From a virus (lineage: Duplodnaviria > Caudoviricetes), in the IMG/VR virus record IMGVR_UViG_3300046819_000361: a stretch of DNA of 64,000 bases; one strand, 5' to 3'. Positions 6,907-14,846 of the stretch are shown piece after piece (positions within the stretch are counted from its first letter, which is position 1; every line of letters begins with the position of its first letter). The notes beneath the pieces were generated by a model. It was not told the DNA's origin, ran no database searches, and saw only the letters and a program-made list of their open reading frames with translations. Made by a program: the position numbers and the translations under genes.

Positions 6907-7024
6907 CACGATACTCCGGTGTGCGATCATTAATTAAACTAAATGCACACCATACAGACGCAATCGAGCCGCCTTTTAAGGTTGATTGTAGTTTAAATTG
7001 TTGATGTAATGATTGCATTTCCAT
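6887..7024 (-). CDS. Putative attenuator leader peptide (45 aa, all 20 amino acids)
   Basis: AAGGA SD; last codons form the antiterminator strand; TTGACA-17-TATAAT at 7076-7104. Confidence 0.6.
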   Translation of the reverse strand: MEMQSLHQQFKLQSTLKGGSIASVWCAFSLINDRTPEYREGSLKT

Positions 7025-7200
7025 TTGTATCAATTTTCCTTTAATTTCATCGGTTGACCCCAACTGATGAAGCGTATTATACAATTATTTAGTTTCTTTG
7101 TCAAGCACTTTTTAAAAAAGTTTTTATTTTTTTTATAATTGTATTTTTATTTAGTAAAAATTCTTATTTACTAGTCAAAATAGCTGTTTTTCAGCATATT

Positions 7201-7653
7201 TTAGTAGAGTGTTAAGAATTCTACTACATTGGTGTGAAGTTCATTATAAATTTTATCACCCCATGTTACAGCATCTTGTTCAGTAACCCTAAAATTATAG
7301 TTTTCTGGTTGAATGAACAATTTATTTGTATCATTGTATCTGCTTTTTTCAATGGTGTCAACCCATATTGTGATAGTTGGGTTAATAATTTCCCTAAATT
7401 CAGGTAATGGTGCTACCATATCTATTAGTATATAGCCATTTTCAACCTCATCAGCAAAATTTTTCATTCGTTGTGCTTGACGAAGTCTCCCATCATATGA
7501 AAAATCCCAATCATTAAATTTTTCTCTTACTTCATCGGCATTGTACCAATGAACTTGGTAATCTGCAAGTTCTAATTTCTTTTTTAGTTCATTGGCTAGG
7601 GTAGTTTTACCAGAGCCCGGTAATCCCATGATCAAAATTGTTTTTTTACTCAT
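7201..7653 (-). CDS. Adenylylsulfate-kinase-like P-loop kinase
   Basis: GLPGSGKTT, NADEVR, GRLRQA motifs. Confidence 0.8.
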   Translation of the reverse strand: MSKKTILIMGLPGSGKTTLANELKKKLELADYQVHWYNADEVREKFNDWDFSYDGRLRQAQRMKNFADEVENGYILIDMVAPLPEFREIINPTITIWVDTIEKSRYNDTNKLFIQPENYNFRVTEQDAVTWGDKIYNELHTNVVEFLTLY

Positions 7654-7752
7654 ATAATTCATCAGTTTCTGAAAAATGGCTTCAAACAAGCCTTACGAAT
7701 GTATTTAGTACCATTTGGTTGACTGTCTATTAAAAAATCAGATTTTTTTACA

Positions 7753-8331
7753 TTACAAAGATACAGGATCCAACAATACCGGTGTATCACCACGTACCAT
7801 AATGTTAGATTCTCTTAAATCTAAATCATAGACGATATTATCGCACCAATACTTCAAAAATTTGTAAATCCACGGGAATTTATTGATTGATCTCTTTTGA
7901 TGATTACTGAGTTCATGATATGATCGTCGATCAATCAAAGAATAGGCCATATCATCTATAACAACTGAAATCTTATCATATTCACCAGGTAATAACGGGT
8001 GTAGTTTCTCTAATCTCACCAGATATGTATCTGAAGTAATTTGTATTATCCCACCTTTAATTTTAGGTAGATTAGGATTGTCCTGATTGCTTAATACGTA
8101 TCTAATGAAGCACAAATAGGCATCATCACCACGAAATATCTTAAACACCCAAGAATAACCAGGATACATATATGCAGAACCATTTGAACCACTACCAAGA
8201 TGTTCAAAACCATAATGATTCATTACATCTTTCCATTGTTCGAATTGATCATCTAATTTTACATCCCTACAATCTTGCTCAAATATTTCTTTAGCTTTAA
8301 TGTATAAAGAATTTCTTTTATACCCAATCAT
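7753..8331 (-). CDS. Protein-kinase-fold protein
   Basis: LGSGSNGSAY, VFK, DLRESNIM, LLDP motifs. Confidence 0.7.
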   Translation of the reverse strand: MIGYKRNSLYIKAKEIFEQDCRDVKLDDQFEQWKDVMNHYGFEHLGSGSNGSAYMYPGYSWVFKIFRGDDAYLCFIRYVLSNQDNPNLPKIKGGIIQITSDTYLVRLEKLHPLLPGEYDKISVVIDDMAYSLIDRRSYHELSNHQKRSINKFPWIYKFLKYWCDNIVYDLDLRESNIMVRGDTPVLLDPVSL

Positions 8332-8354
8332 ATAATTCTCATGATGTATTTTAT

Positions 8355-8885
8355 AATACTAAAGGAGAACTAACGTTCTCCTGTTCTTCGCTATCGCTCA
8401 TCACATTTTTTATAATTTCTATCTTACCTATTCAACTAGATTACGATTTACTTTTGCCCCCATAAAGGGAGCAAAAAAATAATTTCAACTGAGTTGACTT
8501 CATTAGTAGAGTTACACTGGTTACAGAGGCGGTTGGCCGATACCTCGAAGTGCGTTTTTGTTTCTGTTGTCCAACGGTGGCATTAGGAAAATACTCTACC
8601 ATATTCCTAATACGTCCAGGAATTACCTGGTCATTTAGCCTTTTTATCTTTTGTTTAAACATTCGAAATTGGTTGTACGTAGGCGTATCCAATCATCATT
8701 TGCATCACAATGTGCAAGTAGTCGAATGAGTCGCTGCTTCTACTCAGCTGTTTCCCTCCATGCGAAGAACATTCCATTTCCTGGGGCACCTGTCAAACCA
8801 CCGGTGCGAGTGTATCAGAAGTGTATAGCCTGAAAAAGTGCCTGTGAAATCATATTTATCGTTGCCTAAATTTATTTGCCTAATG
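8355..8885 (-). ncRNA. Candidate large (~500 nt) structured ncRNA
   Basis: No credible ORF, at least 8 hairpins, TAGACA-17-TATAAT promoter at 8891-8919. Confidence 0.45.
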
Positions 8886-8927
8886 CAAGCATTATACACC
8901 AGCTGATCTCAAATGTCTAGTTATTTT

Positions 8928-9470
8928 TTAGAAATCTTCATCGTCATCAAAGTCTGACTCTGGGTCATCATAATACCTGTAATAACTTTCATTTTCTTTC
9001 AAAACTCTAACTTTATCTCCTAATTGAATTTGTAAAACTGTCAAATGCTCAGGTTTTAAAATCTCTGTAATGAACCATAAAGTACCACAACCGCCACCAT
9101 ATGTTCTAATGGGACCATGTTTTATTTTTGTTTGAGCTAATGCTTCGCGTAATGAATTACCATATTCTGTAATAATTCTAGAAATACCCTTTTCACGATT
9201 TTTTAATCTGGATTTATCAAACTCAGTTAGATCATCAATGATAGCGGTATTAGAATCATCAATAACCAGTAAACAATCTTTGATTTTGATGGATCCTTTT
9301 GTGTGACTGGAATCTGGTGTTTCTTTTGTACACCACCCTTTACGACAATCTACGTGATCAATATAAAATGAGTCACCTTTTGCTTTAATAATCCACATTG
9401 GGATATTAGCGTCTTCTAAATGTTTTTTATTGAAGTGGAATACCACATCATCACATGCTAATTCTATCAT
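8928..9470 (-). CDS. Hypothetical protein
   Basis: Start MIELAC with AAGGA SD; frame stays open upstream to the TAG at 9582-9584. Confidence 0.75.
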   Translation of the reverse strand: MIELACDDVVFHFNKKHLEDANIPMWIIKAKGDSFYIDHVDCRKGWCTKETPDSSHTKGSIKIKDCLLVIDDSNTAIIDDLTEFDKSRLKNREKGISRIITEYGNSLREALAQTKIKHGPIRTYGGGCGTLWFITEILKPEHLTVLQIQLGDKVRVLKENESYYRYYDDPESDFDDDEDF

Positions 9471-9497
9471 AATTTTTCCTTGAATAATTTTTGGCAT

Positions 9498-9541
9498 AAA
9501 AAAACCCAAGCCAACTTGATGGATCAAGCCGATACTTGGGT
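9498..9541 (-). terminator. Terminator within a leader (attenuator)
   Basis: ACCCAAG...CUUGGGU followed by U-run. Confidence 0.7.
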
Positions 9542-9581
9542 AAAAAAAGGAGTTTTTTAAATTGTTAAAAAGTCTTGTAAT

Positions 9582-9632
9582 CTATAACTGTTTCATAATT
9601 CTTATTATATCAAATTTTATATTGTATGTCAA
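9582..9632 (-). promoter_or_regulatory. Sigma70 promoter plus leaderless mini-ORF MKQL-amber
   Basis: TTGACA-17-TATAAT; ATG at the predicted +1. Confidence 0.55.
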
Positions 9633-9638
9633 TTACTA

Positions 9639-9850
9639 TTTATAGTAACAGTCTTGGGGTTCTAGATATTTCCTCTCAATAGGTTTCACAGCTTTTCCAT
9701 AGCTCTACCTATATTATGCACTTTTTCCTGACTGTGACAGGGAACACAGTAACTTAAGCATACTATACACAGTCTAACTGTTCTCTATGAAAACTCTCTG
9801 TTTACCCTTTGCTACGGGCGTGTTCCTTACCGTGCTGGTCTATACTATAA
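9639..9850 (-). ncRNA. Candidate ~210-nt stem-closed structured RNA
   Basis: ttatagta/tactataa closing stem, internal hairpins, non-coding. Confidence 0.4.
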
Positions 9851-9859
9851 AAATAAAAT

Positions 9860-10222
9860 TTACATCAATGATTTATATAATGAACCAGACAGTTGAAAGT
9901 TTGACTTCCAATTCCATTCATCTAACACTAATTGATTAAACGTGGTGTCATCTAACTCAATGACATCGTCGATACTTAATTCGAGCATTCTGATTGCACG
10001 AGTGTAGCTTTGTTCATATGAACTAGGAACAGATGGTAAGTTTTTAACTTTTGCAATATTGTTCAAATCGCCTGTATTGACAAGTTTTAAGTTATTTTTA
10101 GTAATGACTACCACTGCTTTTTTGAAATCTTCAACTGATTCGTTGAACTCAACAATATGTTTTTCTTTGTTTTCACGAACTACTGCGAGTAATTCTTCTC
10201 TTTTAATTTTTACTGTTTTCAT
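9860..10222 (-). CDS. Conserved phage hypothetical protein
   Basis: Start MKTVKIK; longer call overlaps the tRNA. Confidence 0.75.
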   Translation of the reverse strand: MKTVKIKREELLAVVRENKEKHIVEFNESVEDFKKAVVVITKNNLKLVNTGDLNNIAKVKNLPSVPSSYEQSYTRAIRMLELSIDDVIELDDTTFNQLVLDEWNWKSNFQLSGSLYKSLM

Positions 10223-10261
10223 AACGTTATTTTCAATGTTTCTCATATAAAATGTATTGGT

Positions 10262-10336
10262 TGGTGCACCCGATGGGATTCGAACCCATTGTCGCAAGTT
10301 TTAGAGGCTTGTGCTATACCTAGTAGCTTCGGGTGC
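10262..10336 (-). tRNA. Amber suppressor tRNA (anticodon CTA)
   Basis: Cloverleaf; CAAGC-CTCTAAA-ACTTG puts CTA at 34-36; CCA. Confidence 0.8.
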
Positions 10337-10343
10337 AAAAAAG

Positions 10344-10712
10344 TTAATCATACGAACTGGATGAGCCTGAATCACTTGAAGAACTGTAGTCATGCGAACT
10401 ATGAGAATGACTAGAGGAACTACTATGTGATGATCCATAATCATGCGAACTATATGAACTATATGAACTATGTGAGTGGTTAGCATTGTGTGAACTTGAG
10501 TCTACACTCTTTGCCGCAGCATATGAATCCCACACGTCAACTGATGCTTTGATTACGTTATCCACTGTTTCTGAATCTATATCAAGATCATGCTTTTGTG
10601 ATTTATTTCGTTTATCACTATTTGAAACATACTTCGAAGACACATTAGATTTAGTATCTACTTTCTGAATTGATTGTTTTTTAGTAAAAAAACTTTTGAT
10701 TTTTTCTAACAT
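10344..10712 (-). CDS. Hypothetical protein with Ser/His-rich tail
   Basis: ORF with AAGGA SD, low-complexity C-terminus. Confidence 0.65.
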   Translation of the reverse strand: MLEKIKSFFTKKQSIQKVDTKSNVSSKYVSNSDKRNKSQKHDLDIDSETVDNVIKASVDVWDSYAAAKSVDSSSHNANHSHSSYSSYSSHDYGSSHSSSSSHSHSSHDYSSSSDSGSSSSYD

Positions 10713-10730
10713 AATTTTCCTTATGAAAAA

Positions 10731-10750
10731 TGTGGGGAATTACCCCCACA
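10731..10750 (-). terminator. Intrinsic terminator of the ter cluster
   Basis: tgtgggg/ccccaca hairpin plus U-run. Confidence 0.6.
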
Positions 10751-10758
10751 AAAATGGA

Positions 10759-11328
10759 TTATTGATAACCGCTGACGATATCGCCTAACTCAAGACCATC
10801 GAACCCGGCTCCAATTGCCTGGAATGAGAATTGTCCATCACGTTTGAAGAATGATCCAACTTGAACGGCTGTTTCATTTTTGTAGTCAGCATCTAGATCA
10901 TAGAATGCAATTTCCTCATTGGTATCAGCATTTAAGATTTTGATACCTGCTTCAGGTACCTGACCAAAAGACTGACCACGAGATACAGCTTCATGGATGG
11001 TTACAACAATTGAAATTTCATCAACTGTTGCTGGTAACGTATTGATATCGATGAAAACCTCTTCGGTACCACCTTGACGCATATCTGGTGTTTTTGAAAC
11101 ACTTTTTTCAGGTGTCGCTTCATTGTTATAGAACACCAAATAGTCATCACCTAACAACTTCGGACCATTATCGGTTGTTTTCAAAACAAACGCTGATACA
11201 TCTAAATCATATTTTGGATTGTTATCTGGAACATTCCACCATAATACTGCCTTTACCTTTCCCATGGCAGGTTGTGATTTGGTTAGGTTGATACCTTTAT
11301 TTTCAGATTTTGCAAGATTAATTGCCAT
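10759..11328 (-). CDS. terD: TerD-family stress protein
   Basis: INLTK, DLDVSAF, VFYNN, VVTIHEA..RGQSFGQV, FQAIGAG. Confidence 0.88.
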   Translation of the reverse strand: MAINLAKSENKGINLTKSQPAMGKVKAVLWWNVPDNNPKYDLDVSAFVLKTTDNGPKLLGDDYLVFYNNEATPEKSVSKTPDMRQGGTEEVFIDINTLPATVDEISIVVTIHEAVSRGQSFGQVPEAGIKILNADTNEEIAFYDLDADYKNETAVQVGSFFKRDGQFSFQAIGAGFDGLELGDIVSGYQ

Positions 11329-11351
11329 GTTATTACCTCTTGGTAGTTTAA

Positions 11352-12359
11352 TTAAATTGATTTGTGTTTGATTGAAGAGATCAATGATGCACCAATGAAT
11401 GCAGCACCAATCAACCCTGTAATGCTTTCTGGAATTTCGTATACAGTATTTACGAACATGATGATAGCCAATCCAAATATTGCATAGAATGCACCATGCT
11501 CTAGGTAAATGAATTCATCAACAGTGCCCTTATCTACCATTAGTAATGTTAAGCTTCTTACGAATAACGCACCGATACCAAGGCCAATCATGATGATGAA
11601 AATATTGTTTGTCAATGCTAATGCACCTAATACTCCGTCGAAACTGAAGCTTGCATCTAATACTTCCAAGTAAAGAAACGATGCTAACCCGGATTTGGCT
11701 ACTGCACCTGTAACCGTGCCATCATCAGTCCCGATTACTGCTTCTAAACCATCGACAAGAATGTACGTTACTAATCCGAATACACTTGCGACCAAGAATG
11801 CTGATGCTTCTGTTTCATTATGTGTGGATCCGATGATTTTGTAAACAATATATACCAATACTAATGTAATTGCAGATTGTATTGCTTCAATTTTGCCTAA
11901 TTTAGTGAATCTTTCTTCAATTGGTTTAAGCCAATGCGTATCTTTGTCTTGATCGATGAAAAACTTTAATGCAACCATCATTAGGAATGTGCCACCGAAA
12001 CCCATGACTGAGGTATGGACTGATTCTAGCGCATGAGAATACTGTTCTGGGTCATTAACTGCTAACATGAATGATGAATATGGGTTAATTCCCAATGCAA
12101 CTGATACAATTGCTAATGGAAACACCATTCTCATACCAAATACAGCAATAGCCATACCCCAGGTAATGAAACGATGACGCCATATATCATCCATTCCTTT
12201 TAGAACTTGTGCATTCACGACGGCATTATCAAAACTCAAACTAACTTCAAGAATTGATAGAACTAACGTGATCCAGGCTGCTTCGAGCCCACCGATCAAA
12301 TATGCTAGTACGATACCGATACCAGCAATCAAAAAAGAACCTTTAAAATATTGTAACAT
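11352..12359 (-). CDS. DUF475/TerC-like integral membrane protein
   Basis: LEVSLSFDNAVVNA, YLEVLDASFSFDGV, YLEHGAFYAI. Confidence 0.88.
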   Translation of the reverse strand: MLQYFKGSFLIAGIGIVLAYLIGGLEAAWITLVLSILEVSLSFDNAVVNAQVLKGMDDIWRHRFITWGMAIAVFGMRMVFPLAIVSVALGINPYSSFMLAVNDPEQYSHALESVHTSVMGFGGTFLMMVALKFFIDQDKDTHWLKPIEERFTKLGKIEAIQSAITLVLVYIVYKIIGSTHNETEASAFLVASVFGLVTYILVDGLEAVIGTDDGTVTGAVAKSGLASFLYLEVLDASFSFDGVLGALALTNNIFIIMIGLGIGALFVRSLTLLMVDKGTVDEFIYLEHGAFYAIFGLAIIMFVNTVYEIPESITGLIGAAFIGASLISSIKHKSI

Positions 12360-12422
12360 TGGATATTACCTGTGTGTTTGTTAAAAGAAGCTTCATTCTA
12401 CCTGTAAATTCAGGTATGTCAA

Positions 12423-13103
12423 TTATTTTTTAAACTTTCCGACCCAATCAGCAAATTCTTGGCTGATAATGTCTTCATATAAGTCTTCATCACTGATACT
12501 TTCGATATCATCTATCTTCAAATAACCGGCATTTGGGTATTTTTCGCCCAAATATTCGATAAATGAGAAGTTCCCACCACCAATACCGATCAAAACCCAA
12601 TATAAATCTTTAGATTGTGATTCTACGATAACCTTTTCAGTTGCTTGTTGATCGAAATTCTCGCCATCGGTGATGAAAATAGCTAATGATGGGTCAGTTG
12701 AATTAGATTTCTTCCCAAACAACTTCCCAAATAGGCCAGTTTGTACTGGTGCGGCACTATTAACGATGTCTTTCATGACTGGTGCATACTCTGTACCACC
12801 TTCACTAATTTTTTTGACGATTTCACGGTCAACAAAGTCTTCGATGTTGCTAATATTGACTGATGGCAGCTCAAATGAATCATTATGAAATGCCCAAATG
12901 TCAATAATTTTATCTTTATCGATGTTCATACCAATTGCTAGCACTCGTTCTACCACATCTTGAACGACTTTGTTGCGATATAGGGTATTCATGGACCCAC
13001 TGCGATCAATTGCCAGTTTTACTTGGCATGGAATGTCACGGATTTGTTTTTTAGTTAGGATGATACCTACTTTTTCTGCTCTTTTAGTTAAATCAATAGC
13101 CAT
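12423..13103 (-). CDS. vWA-domain protein (Ter-associated)
   Basis: DRSGSM MIDAS, GGTEYAPVM, FITDG. Confidence 0.85.
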   Translation of the reverse strand: MAIDLTKRAEKVGIILTKKQIRDIPCQVKLAIDRSGSMNTLYRNKVVQDVVERVLAIGMNIDKDKIIDIWAFHNDSFELPSVNISNIEDFVDREIVKKISEGGTEYAPVMKDIVNSAAPVQTGLFGKLFGKKSNSTDPSLAIFITDGENFDQQATEKVIVESQSKDLYWVLIGIGGGNFSFIEYLGEKYPNAGYLKIDDIESISDEDLYEDIISQEFADWVGKFKK

Positions 13104-13132
13104 TTTTACTTATCTCGGTTGATTGTTAAAAA

Positions 13133-14272
13133 TTAATGGGTTTTTGGTCCTGCAATAGTGGTCCGTCCAGCATTAGATGAAATGGAAGCATACATGCGCT
13201 TCATTTCATCCATTCTCGATGCACTTTTAATTCTAGTTTCTTTACCAGTATTGTTTATTTGCACAATTTCTCCTAATGTACTGATTAGGTTTTGATGTAC
13301 ATGTTCTATTGTAGCATCATCTATCAATGAACGTTGGTTTAATTTTGCTGATTCAATTGAATTAGCACTAATGATGTTTGAATTGGTTTTAATTAGAGTA
13401 TTGTTTGCATCATCTACTGCTGCTGCTAATGCTGCACTTTTTCTTAATTCTTGACCATCTATATACATTCTGATTTGTCTTTTCCATAATGGAATAGTCA
13501 TAGTTTTGATATCATGGAATTTTTGGAGTAATGTTGCAGCACTATCTTCCATTTGACTAATTGAAGGTGCATTTTGAATAGCCATCATTTGAAATTTCTT
13601 CAAATAATCGATTTTCTTCTCCAATCGATCTAAATTTTTTGTACTTCTATTAACTTCTTCGGCGGCAAGGAGATCTGATGCGTTAACCCGCATTTTTTCA
13701 ATTTCTTTTGCCATTATTTGGTATGCTTCTTCTGCATCTTTGATCAAATTTTCTAATCTGTGATATTCATTCAAATTTTCACGGTATTGCACTTGCAGAC
13801 CGTTTAATTTGGCAATAATTCTGTGATTGGCTTGATCAATTTCGTCAATAATTTTGTCCATTTGTGTGGACACATCAGTGAATTCTGCTGAAAGTTGTTC
13901 ACGGACATTAATAAACTTTTCTTTGATCTTTCCAAAGAGTTTTGAAATATTTGAATCTGAATTATTGTTCGTATTCAGGTGAAATGTCTTCGCCATTGTT
14001 AGAATACTAGTTAACTGTTGTTCAACGAAGTCAACGTCAGCATCTTTGACTTCATTTAATAAAGCTTCTGATTTTTTGGCAATATCTGACATAACATCCG
14101 CCCCGTAATCGATAATCCCGGTTGGTGAATCAAATGTTGAAAGTAATTGGAGTACACGAGGATTGGATGCGCCTAAATCTGACAATTGTTTAGGTGAAAC
14201 TGGTGTAAATGACTGTTTAACTGAAACTTCAGTACCAGATGATGACACTTGAACAGGTTTAAAAGACTTCAT
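13133..14272 (-). CDS. TelA-family toxic anion resistance protein
   Basis: Long coiled coil, Q.APSI..M and TIPLWK motifs, ter context. Confidence 0.8.
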   Translation of the reverse strand: MKSFKPVQVSSSGTEVSVKQSFTPVSPKQLSDLGASNPRVLQLLSTFDSPTGIIDYGADVMSDIAKKSEALLNEVKDADVDFVEQQLTSILTMAKTFHLNTNNNSDSNISKLFGKIKEKFINVREQLSAEFTDVSTQMDKIIDEIDQANHRIIAKLNGLQVQYRENLNEYHRLENLIKDAEEAYQIMAKEIEKMRVNASDLLAAEEVNRSTKNLDRLEKKIDYLKKFQMMAIQNAPSISQMEDSAATLLQKFHDIKTMTIPLWKRQIRMYIDGQELRKSAALAAAVDDANNTLIKTNSNIISANSIESAKLNQRSLIDDATIEHVHQNLISTLGEIVQINNTGKETRIKSASRMDEMKRMYASISSNAGRTTIAGPKTH

Positions 14273-14326: not shown

Positions 14327-14846
14327 GGTATTTTTGGTTATAAGGTATTTCCTACCCCAGAATTCGCTGGTTATTAAGCAGCGATAGCATCAAAGATGCC
14401 ATCTACAGTGTAGAATTCAAATTTAGAATCGTTTGCGATTACTATGTTTATGCTGATTAGGTCAGTCATATCTCCTGTTGCCTTCTCCACTATTACACCA
14501 CGTCGAAACCAACTGTCATTCCCATCATAAAAACATAGGTACTCCCCTTTGAAGGGGCAGGGAGTTTATGGCTATGGCCCCACTCTGATACCAACCTATG
14601 TTCTTATGGTGGAAATGCCCGGGGTCGAACCGGGGTCCGCAATGCCTTTATTTTGAAGGAATAACAACAATTCTGTATATCTATACCGCACACCCTTGCG
14701 ACTTCAGCCTGTTAAGGTAGAGCTACTAAATAGAAGTCATAGAGTTCTATATGTTCGCATAGATAAGTTAAATATCTAACTATGGTTCAATAATGGCGTA
14801 CCACTCCTAATCGTTTGTACTATGTACCGGATTTAAGTTAGACTAT
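14327..14846 (-). ncRNA. ssrA: Circularly permuted (two-piece) tmRNA; tag ANDSKFEFYTVDGIFDAIAA at 14374-14436
   Basis: Acceptor piece ends GGUUCGACCCCGGGCAUUUCCACCA (14607), coding piece starts GGGAAUG (14523); G3-U70; promoter at 14853-14880; 5' boundary uncertain. Confidence 0.88.

Follow-up and report, generated by a model that had tools for sequence, protein, structure and literature searches.

A candidate UAG-gated transcription attenuator downstream of an amber suppressor tRNA in a standard-code giant phage, and its in-gene counterpart in related viruses

What does an amber suppressor tRNA act upon when the phage that encodes it does not recode its genome? To our knowledge, the suppressor tRNAs of non-recoding phages have so far had no known target. 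The question arises at one locus of a giant lake-water phage with the gene content expected for a large freshwater phage, of which we analysed a stretch of 64,000 nucleotides (the window). Here, the gene of a tRNA with the anticodon CUA is followed on the same strand by a mini-ORF that ends in TAG, by an intrinsic terminator and by the gene of a protein that we call P0001 (Table 1). A sequence-only reading of this DNA had proposed that read-through of the UAG lets the ribosome melt the terminator, so that expression of the gene depends on suppressor activity or on a shortage of RF1.

With a G+C content of 35%, the window is densely coding in the standard code (code 11). TAG terminates 6 of its 79 ORFs, and read-through of TAG lengthened the ORFs no more than read-through of TGA. 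Within the window, no other ATG..TAG gate precedes a long frame, and read-through is needed at one site only. Because neither TAG recoding nor a second gate is found in the window, the suppressor tRNA does not serve a recoded genome. The tRNA(CUA) itself, placed about 0.7 kb upstream by the sequence-only reading, is recovered by both searches named in Table 1, 666-740 nt upstream of the mini-ORF. Wherever the flanking sequence of a relative is long enough, a homologue of this tRNA is present upstream on the same strand, and the homologues carry compensatory changes in the acceptor stem.

The surroundings of the locus include a tRNA array, a permuted tmRNA, a Polynucleobacter-1 RNA and Ter-type stress genes. 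The permuted tmRNA (14338-14720, minus strand; RF04321, 124.6 bits; beta_tmRNA, 97.8 bits) is a second translation-rescue element close to the suppressor tRNA. The Ter-type cluster (10759-14272, minus strand), which encodes TelA, a vWA TerF-like protein, a TerC-like membrane protein and TerD, is located upstream of the tRNA(CUA). Just upstream of this tRNA there is also a 122-aa ORF (10344-10712, minus strand) that matches no family and whose C-terminal half is of low complexity, made up of Ser, His, Tyr and Asp. On the other side, the Polynucleobacter-1 RNA (Rfam RF01718, 64.6 bits; 8657-8812, minus strand) lies directly 3' of the gated gene and is preceded by a promoter-like sequence at 8919-8891 (TAGACA, 17 nt, TATAAT). 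In relatives, an Amidoligase_2 gene comes after the gated gene.

Table 1. Parts of the tRNA(CUA)-P0001 locus in the window
Feature	Position	Strand	Remark
tRNA, anticodon CUA, CCA encoded	10262..10336	-	ARAGORN; Rfam tRNA, 54.4 bits
P0002, 128-aa gene (phrog_34511) between tRNA(CUA) and leader	9860..10246	-	
Conserved non-coding insert	9633..9859	-	found only in the window, L003 and L100
Consensus sigma-70 promoter: TTGACA, 17 nt, TGnTATAAT	9604..9632	-	
Sense codons of the mini-ORF, ATG AAA CAG TTA	9585..9596	-	ATG at 9596-9594
Candidate gating amber codon, TAG	9582..9584	-	TAG kept in 10/10 leaders
Invariant block T-R-TAG-ATTAC-W-AGA	9573..9586	-	invariant columns of the leader alignment
40-nt spacer	9542..9581	-	TAG frame open, other two frames closed early
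Intrinsic terminator	9498..9541	-	hairpin 9541-9504, U-run to 9498
Shine-Dalgarno sequence of P0001, AAGGA	9477..9481	-	no conserved pairing sequesters AAGGA
P0001, 180-aa gene, putatively gated	8928..9470	-	N-terminus MIELAC aligns with the family start

The anatomy that the sequence-only reading had described for the leader (promoter, ATG AAA CAG TTA TAG, 37 stop-free codons, hairpin, and frame with the gene) was confirmed base for base. The promoter has its -35 hexamer at 9632-9627, the TG at 9612-9611 and the -10 hexamer TATAAT at 9609-9604, and it is the sole 12/12 match with an extended -10 in a scan of 7000-13000. The ATG of the mini-ORF begins 7 nt past the -10 hexamer, at or adjoining the predicted +1, so that its mRNA is predicted to be leaderless. 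The 37 codons after the TAG (9581-9471) run in frame into the ATG at 9470, across a hairpin of 16 pairs with a 2-nt bulge and a calculated energy of -19.0 kcal/mol. Only 27 nt separate the terminator from the ATG of P0001. A further ATG (9495-9497, minus strand) stands directly after the U-run and is found at the same place in L005, L006, L007, L011, L013 and L102. Of the eight leaders that have it, all but L100 keep it in the frame of the gene, 27 or 30 nt from the gene start, and gene callers choose it as the start. One possibility is an alternative start, by which the protein would gain 9-10 residues; another is a constraint on spacing.

Relatives of the locus were gathered through exact-protein look-ups and a scan with a DNA pattern. 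Two independent assemblies (L003 and L004) carry a leader identical to that of the window, and nine diverged versions were found besides it, which gives ten distinct leaders (the window, L100, L005, L006, L007, L011, L013, L102, L101 and L103). With this recurrence, the arrangement exceeds what chance would give. The ten are mutually related, so that counts over them are not independent. All ten have the terminator, the tRNA(CUA), the TAG and an ATG in frame with it. The mini-ORFs comprise 2, 4 or 12 sense codons, that of L100 reading ATG AAA AAG TTA. The spacer between the TAG and the hairpin measures 26-43 nt, and every leader has an AAGGA-type Shine-Dalgarno sequence and a separate ATG for the downstream gene. 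A candidate further leader type, at P0100, was rejected as ungated.

The hairpin covaries among the leaders. Its calculated energy ranges from -16 to -21 kcal/mol, and six to nine U follow it, the run being broken by one C in L101. In the outer stem, substitutions are paired (ACCCAAG/CTTGGGT, ACCCGAG/CTCGGGT, ACCCGAA/TTCGGGT). Over the leader alignment, six pairs have changed on both sides, and 95.6% of the alignment cells pair, compared with 22-52% when the partner is slid. L100 has a rewritten inner stem, and L103 carries a hairpin unrelated in sequence with the layout unchanged.

The leaders differ in how the mini-ORF could be reached by ribosomes. The promoter is absent from most relatives, where the ATG of the mini-ORF lies 1-8 nt past the stop codon of the P0002 homologue, a distance that suits re-initiation. 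L005 has a Shine-Dalgarno sequence of its own, AAGG, 8 nt before its 12-codon mini-ORF. Common to the window and L100 are an insert (about 230 nt) and, adjoining it, the promoter, whose perfect consensus is placed directly on the ATG of the mini-ORF; in L100 the hexamers are kept and the spacer between them differs. The insert of the window aligns with positions 128-370 of L100 at 85% identity, with long invariant blocks and some changes that look paired, and folding of 9640-9850 as a single sequence gave nothing distinctive (z = -0.63). The insert could be a mobile promoter cassette or the gene of a small RNA. Another kind of insertion is seen in L008 (2235-3008), L009 and L010, where a GIY-YIG/NUMOD3 homing-endonuclease gene lies between the terminator and the gated gene. 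These three loci keep the UAG leader upstream, and the N-terminus of their gated gene is rewritten to M-N-K-I-E-Y, without TAG.

The reading frame behind the TAG is selectively poor in stops. From the TAG to the end of the stem, the stops of all ten leaders add up to 3 in the TAG frame, against 19 and 22 in the other two frames. All three of these stops are inside the hairpin and belong to the L006 group and L102. Eight of the ten leaders have their next in-frame stop only past the U-run, and the other two (the L006 group and L102) have it, as a TGA, within the 5' arm of the hairpin; it never falls in the spacer. Shuffled spacers remain open in the TAG frame with P values of 0.23-0.59 each. 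The product of these values over seven diverged leaders is 3e-4, a figure that overstates the significance because the leaders are related. By contrast, the TAG is in frame with the next gene in 4 of the 10 leaders, which is the chance level, and the link is lost in the other 6; therefore, the frame link to the gene is incidental. An N-terminal extension of the protein as the purpose of the arrangement was rejected on the same count, together with the TGA before the U-run in two leaders. Against the comparative check that the sequence-only reading had set, conservation of the TAG and of the frame in relatives, the proposal of read-through over the terminator is thus partly supported: the conserved TAG, the frame that is open to or through the hairpin and the in-gene gates described below (50 of 54 loci) are in its favor, and the continuity with the gene frame, seen in the window, is not conserved among the leaders.

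The significance of the TAG is further illustrated by the rest of the P0001 family, in which a similar gate lies within the gene itself. We tested for it at 80 viral loci fetched through the family alignment, 54 of which are distinct. In 50 of these 54, an SD-like sequence of the AAGGAG type is followed by ATG, one to three codons, TAG and then the conserved N-terminus I-E-[YLF]-A-C, so that the TAG is codon 3-5 of the gene. The stop at the gate is TAG in all 50 and never TAA or TGA. The codon behind it is ATT in 43 of the 50 and the base behind it A in 49, and a tRNA(CUA) on the same strand lies within 2.5 kb upstream in 33 of the gated loci. Many database proteins of the family read M-[AS]-Q-I-E at the gate. 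Since CAG occupies the gate position in none of the 54 DNA loci, these entries are probably code-15 translations. A cultured phage, Rhizobium phage RHph_I1_18 (L105, MN988519), has a short member of the family that reads M-S-E-F-M-TAG, with the TAG as codon 6. It extends over about 1480-1704, directly before a tRNA(CUA) at 1737-1814, and has no CDS in GenBank. Being cultured, this phage offers a handle for experiments.

The window shares much with these loci. Its TAG is codon 5, ATT is the next codon and the tRNA(CUA) lies 0.7 kb upstream, and TAG-ATT is retained though the mini-ORF no longer encodes a protein of the P0001 family. The TTA-TAG-ATT of the window is thus homologous to the family gate. 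In one respect the window departs from the in-gene form: its TAG is not at the start of the frame of P0001, as 37 non-homologous codons and the terminator intervene. In the leader form, which is a derived one, about 105 nt comprising the terminator, a Shine-Dalgarno sequence and a new ATG lie between the gate and the gene. The new ATG of the leader-type genes occupies the exact place of the TAG in other members, and each locus has one gate, never both.

The two arrangements are interspersed in the family tree. Maximum-likelihood analysis of 62 family proteins gave a tree in which the clade of the window, comprising seven leader rows and L008, is well supported (100/99). L101 pairs with an in-gene locus, and L103 falls in a different major branch, so that three changes of the leader state are needed on the tree. 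A single leader clade was rejected by the AU test (p = 0.014), a value to be read with the caveat that the grouping was named after the tree had been seen and that L101 is a long branch. The three changes and this rejection indicate that the two designs have replaced each other more than once, or have moved by recombination. Repeated replacement is to be expected if both designs do the same job.

We propose that the leader of the window is a UAG-gated transcription attenuator that would work by ribosome-mediated antitermination similar to that of pyrBI, and we give this reading a probability of about one half. The mini-ORF would be translated without a leader from the promoter in the window and L100, from its own Shine-Dalgarno sequence in L005, and in most relatives probably by re-initiation. 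Where RF1 terminates at the UAG, the ribosome would leave the mRNA 26-43 nt before the hairpin. With at least 26 nt free after release, the hairpin can fold, and RNA polymerase would stop short of the 180-aa gene, for which there is no separate promoter. If instead a charged tRNA(CUA) competes with RF1 and decodes the UAG, the ribosome would trail the polymerase into or through the hairpin and block its folding. The gene of P0001 would then be transcribed, and it could be translated from its own free Shine-Dalgarno sequence and ATG. The logic would be that of most of the family, in which the protein is expected only when UAG is suppressed.

Several properties of the leaders bear on this proposal. 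In all ten, an intrinsic terminator precedes the gene and no promoter follows the terminator. The 27-30 nt behind the terminator are too short for a promoter; thus, the gene must be reached by read-through of the terminator. As no conserved pairing masks the Shine-Dalgarno sequence, the step most plausibly controlled is transcription through the terminator. The frame of the leader enters or passes the hairpin only if UAG is read. The spacing can be compared with that at tR2, where a stop codon 28 nt before the terminator leaves about 90% termination and one at 5 nt leaves less than 10%, in a translation-dependent manner (PMC4824070). In the two cases with a TGA in the 5' arm of the hairpin (the L006 group and L102), an effect requires that the terminating ribosome masks the stem. 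Efficient termination is, however, also reported for terminators in the first 100 bp of a coding region, where the first ribosome has not kept up with the polymerase (PMC4824070). Coupling may thus be poor in the window, whose U-run ends at about 100 nt from the 5' end and whose mini-ORF would be initiated without a leader. This concern is smaller for relatives in which the upstream gene already has a ribosome trailing the polymerase. In the leader, no pause site was identified.

The most serious alternative is a terminator that is constitutively leaky behind a fossil start, with no sensing of suppression. The hairpin would only end or damp the tRNA(CUA)-P0002 unit and set a low level of P0001, and ATG..TAG would be an old gene start, abandoned when about 105 nt with a new Shine-Dalgarno sequence and ATG were inserted. 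Partial terminators are common between phage genes, and in most relatives the hairpin comes directly after the upstream gene. P0001 also has an unmasked Shine-Dalgarno sequence and ATG of its own, and the in-frame link to the gene is at chance. However, decay would be expected of a fossil, whereas no change is seen in the ATG, the TAG or the ATT among leaders with rewritten hairpins and with proteins only 59-60% identical. The shortage of stops is also specific to the TAG frame (3 versus 19 and 22), and in the window and L100 a perfect promoter is set directly on the ATG of the mini-ORF. We regard this explanation as unlikely.

We consider even less likely a gate on translation, in which read-through ribosomes would unfold the hairpin on a full-length mRNA and then, in the in-frame lineages, continue into the gene, or else stop beside its start and re-initiate, so that its translation rises, with the hairpin as a stabiliser of the RNA or a roadblock. 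In favor of such a gate, the out-of-frame leaders end the read-through frame near the gene start: L013 with a TGA that overlaps the ATG, L007 with a TAA 17 nt upstream of the ATG, and L100 and L103 with a stop 17 nt downstream of it. The four in-frame leaders would give an extended protein. Nevertheless, in two leaders the frame closes within the hairpin, about 55-60 nt short of the gene start, and the Shine-Dalgarno sequence and ATG are not sequestered in a conserved structure, so that translation should need no help. The U-run behind every hairpin is, moreover, a mark of termination that a translational device does not need.

It is improbable that TAGATTACWAGA is a recognition site for a protein or RNA (a processing nuclease or a regulator, for example, or as the target of a homing endonuclease) in which TAG is not a codon. 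The block does exceed a codon context, is invariant in nine leaders and has a GIY-YIG endonuclease gene inserted just downstream in L008-L010. However, L103 keeps only TAGATTA and retains the architecture, and the window contains no second copy of the block. The block always stands behind an ATG in frame and ahead of an open frame, and in 43 of the 50 in-gene gates TAG-ATT is clearly a pair of codons.

Other known classes of leader were also considered. No Rfam match, to a T-box or to another catalogued cis-regulatory RNA, was obtained in 9440-9660 at E values up to 1, in a search that covers catalogued classes. TAGATTACWAGA is not a repeated promoter or operator, as it has 20 matches with up to 2 mismatches versus 18.5 expected and a single exact one, in the window. 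Masking of the P0001 ribosome site by an anti-SD sequence was rejected because the CUCCU/AAGGA pairing is predicted in only 3 of the 10 leaders. An attenuator of the trp/his type was rejected as well: there is no conserved antiterminator helix, and the mini-ORFs consist of 2-12 unrelated codons. Where the stem changes, the invariant block shows no accompanying covariation. Bypassing of the T4 gene 60 type does not apply, as the take-off codon would be TTA and the codons before the gene start are ATT and ATG, and the only TTA near the gene start is followed by TGA. Megablast and tblastn against phage records gave no match, and nothing was found in the nearest virus record (G001). One metagenome scan was without a match; its peptide patterns were too specific.

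Among known systems, the closest in layout is the pyrBI leader (pyrL) of E. coli, in which, in the account of Roland, Liu and Turnbough (1988) as cited in PMC5021804, a leader ORF likewise runs through an intrinsic terminator without an antiterminator helix. A ribosome that advances through the pyrL leader prevents the terminator from forming (PMC5021804). The signal of pyrL is given in the same account as UTP-dependent pausing of the polymerase; in contrast, the signal here would be a UAG at codon 3-13 that is either decoded or terminated, with as few as two codons before the gate. The in-gene amber gate shares with the leader the protein family, TAG-ATT, the linked suppressor tRNA and the logic. 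It would act on translation alone, whereas the leader gate is located in a separate mini-ORF before a terminator, and the gene has its own start. In phages that use code 15 (TAG as Gln; crAss-like and jumbo phages; PMC7886860, PMC13037316), a phage tRNA(CUA) overrides UAG as proposed here. These phages have in-frame TAG codons in many, mostly late genes, whereas the window has a single read-through site.

An early stop codon that senses the capacity for termination is known from the autoregulation of prfB (RF2), and at leader stop codons the kinetics of termination change attenuation, as would be the case in our leader (PMC5373646). Release-factor defects alter attenuation at trpL and ivbL (PMC5373646). 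The prfB system senses RF2 through a +1 frameshift at UGA and, unlike the leader described here, involves no suppressor tRNA. The effects at trpL and ivbL are by-products rather than the work of dedicated sensors, and again no suppressor tRNA takes part. Synthetic amber-suppressor circuits (PMC7969014, PMC13276491) place a UAG early in a gene so that the output needs a co-expressed suppressor tRNA, in a coherent feed-forward arrangement. Such circuits are engineered and act on translation only, whereas the leader is natural and coupled to a terminator. In the literature, we found no description of a natural amber-gated gene or attenuator in standard-code phages, and what has been written on UAG override so far concerns recoded phages and engineered circuits. 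The terminator-coupled amber gate is a new form both of leader-ORF attenuation and of the in-gene gate.

The protein behind the gate belongs to a family of 874 homologues. P0001 has no sequence match in Pfam, PHROG or the PDB. Its predicted structure (pLDDT 87) comprises an N-terminal beta domain and a C-terminal ferredoxin-like domain, and a Foldseek search with this model gave no match at an E value of 0.001 or better. With VIA-align, the C-terminal ferredoxin-like (ACT/RRM-like) domain reached Z values of up to 6.2, with an rmsd of 3.1 over 74 residues, and the N-terminal beta domain reached up to 3.6, both of which are below the level that the tool treats as meaningful. A gene for a Pth2-like protein (peptidyl-tRNA hydrolase) stands directly before ungated or short members of the family, in L001/L002 (upstream of 746/3001) and in L085 (upstream of 2501). 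In L002 and L085, a tRNA(CUA) is found further upstream of the Pth2-like gene. This neighbor links the P0001 family to other functions in translation termination.

The findings carry a warning for annotation, as family members are entered with a wrong start, are left uncalled, as in RHph_I1_18, or appear, judged from their N-termini, to be translated with Q at the gate in public databases. If the mechanism is confirmed, the leader would provide a compact natural part (about 100 nt) whose transcription reports the activity of a suppressor tRNA or of RF1, which would be useful in genetic-code engineering. The stop codon would then join the regulatory codons of leader-peptide attenuators.

For the phages themselves, the locus and its relatives give the suppressor tRNAs of non-recoding phages a target. 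Together, they suggest that selection keeps the rule of making the protein only when UAG is read, through two different mechanisms. We tentatively suggest, at somewhat short of even odds, that large standard-code phages possess a dedicated sensor of UAG suppression, in which one conserved protein is tied to the activity of the tRNA(CUA) by two interchangeable devices, an in-gene UAG or a mini-ORF with a terminator, that have been swapped more than once. If this is true, the window would hold the first natural attenuator with a stop codon as its regulatory codon, and P0001 would be part of a programme of stop-codon override, for example as a feedback controller or as an effector of suppression.
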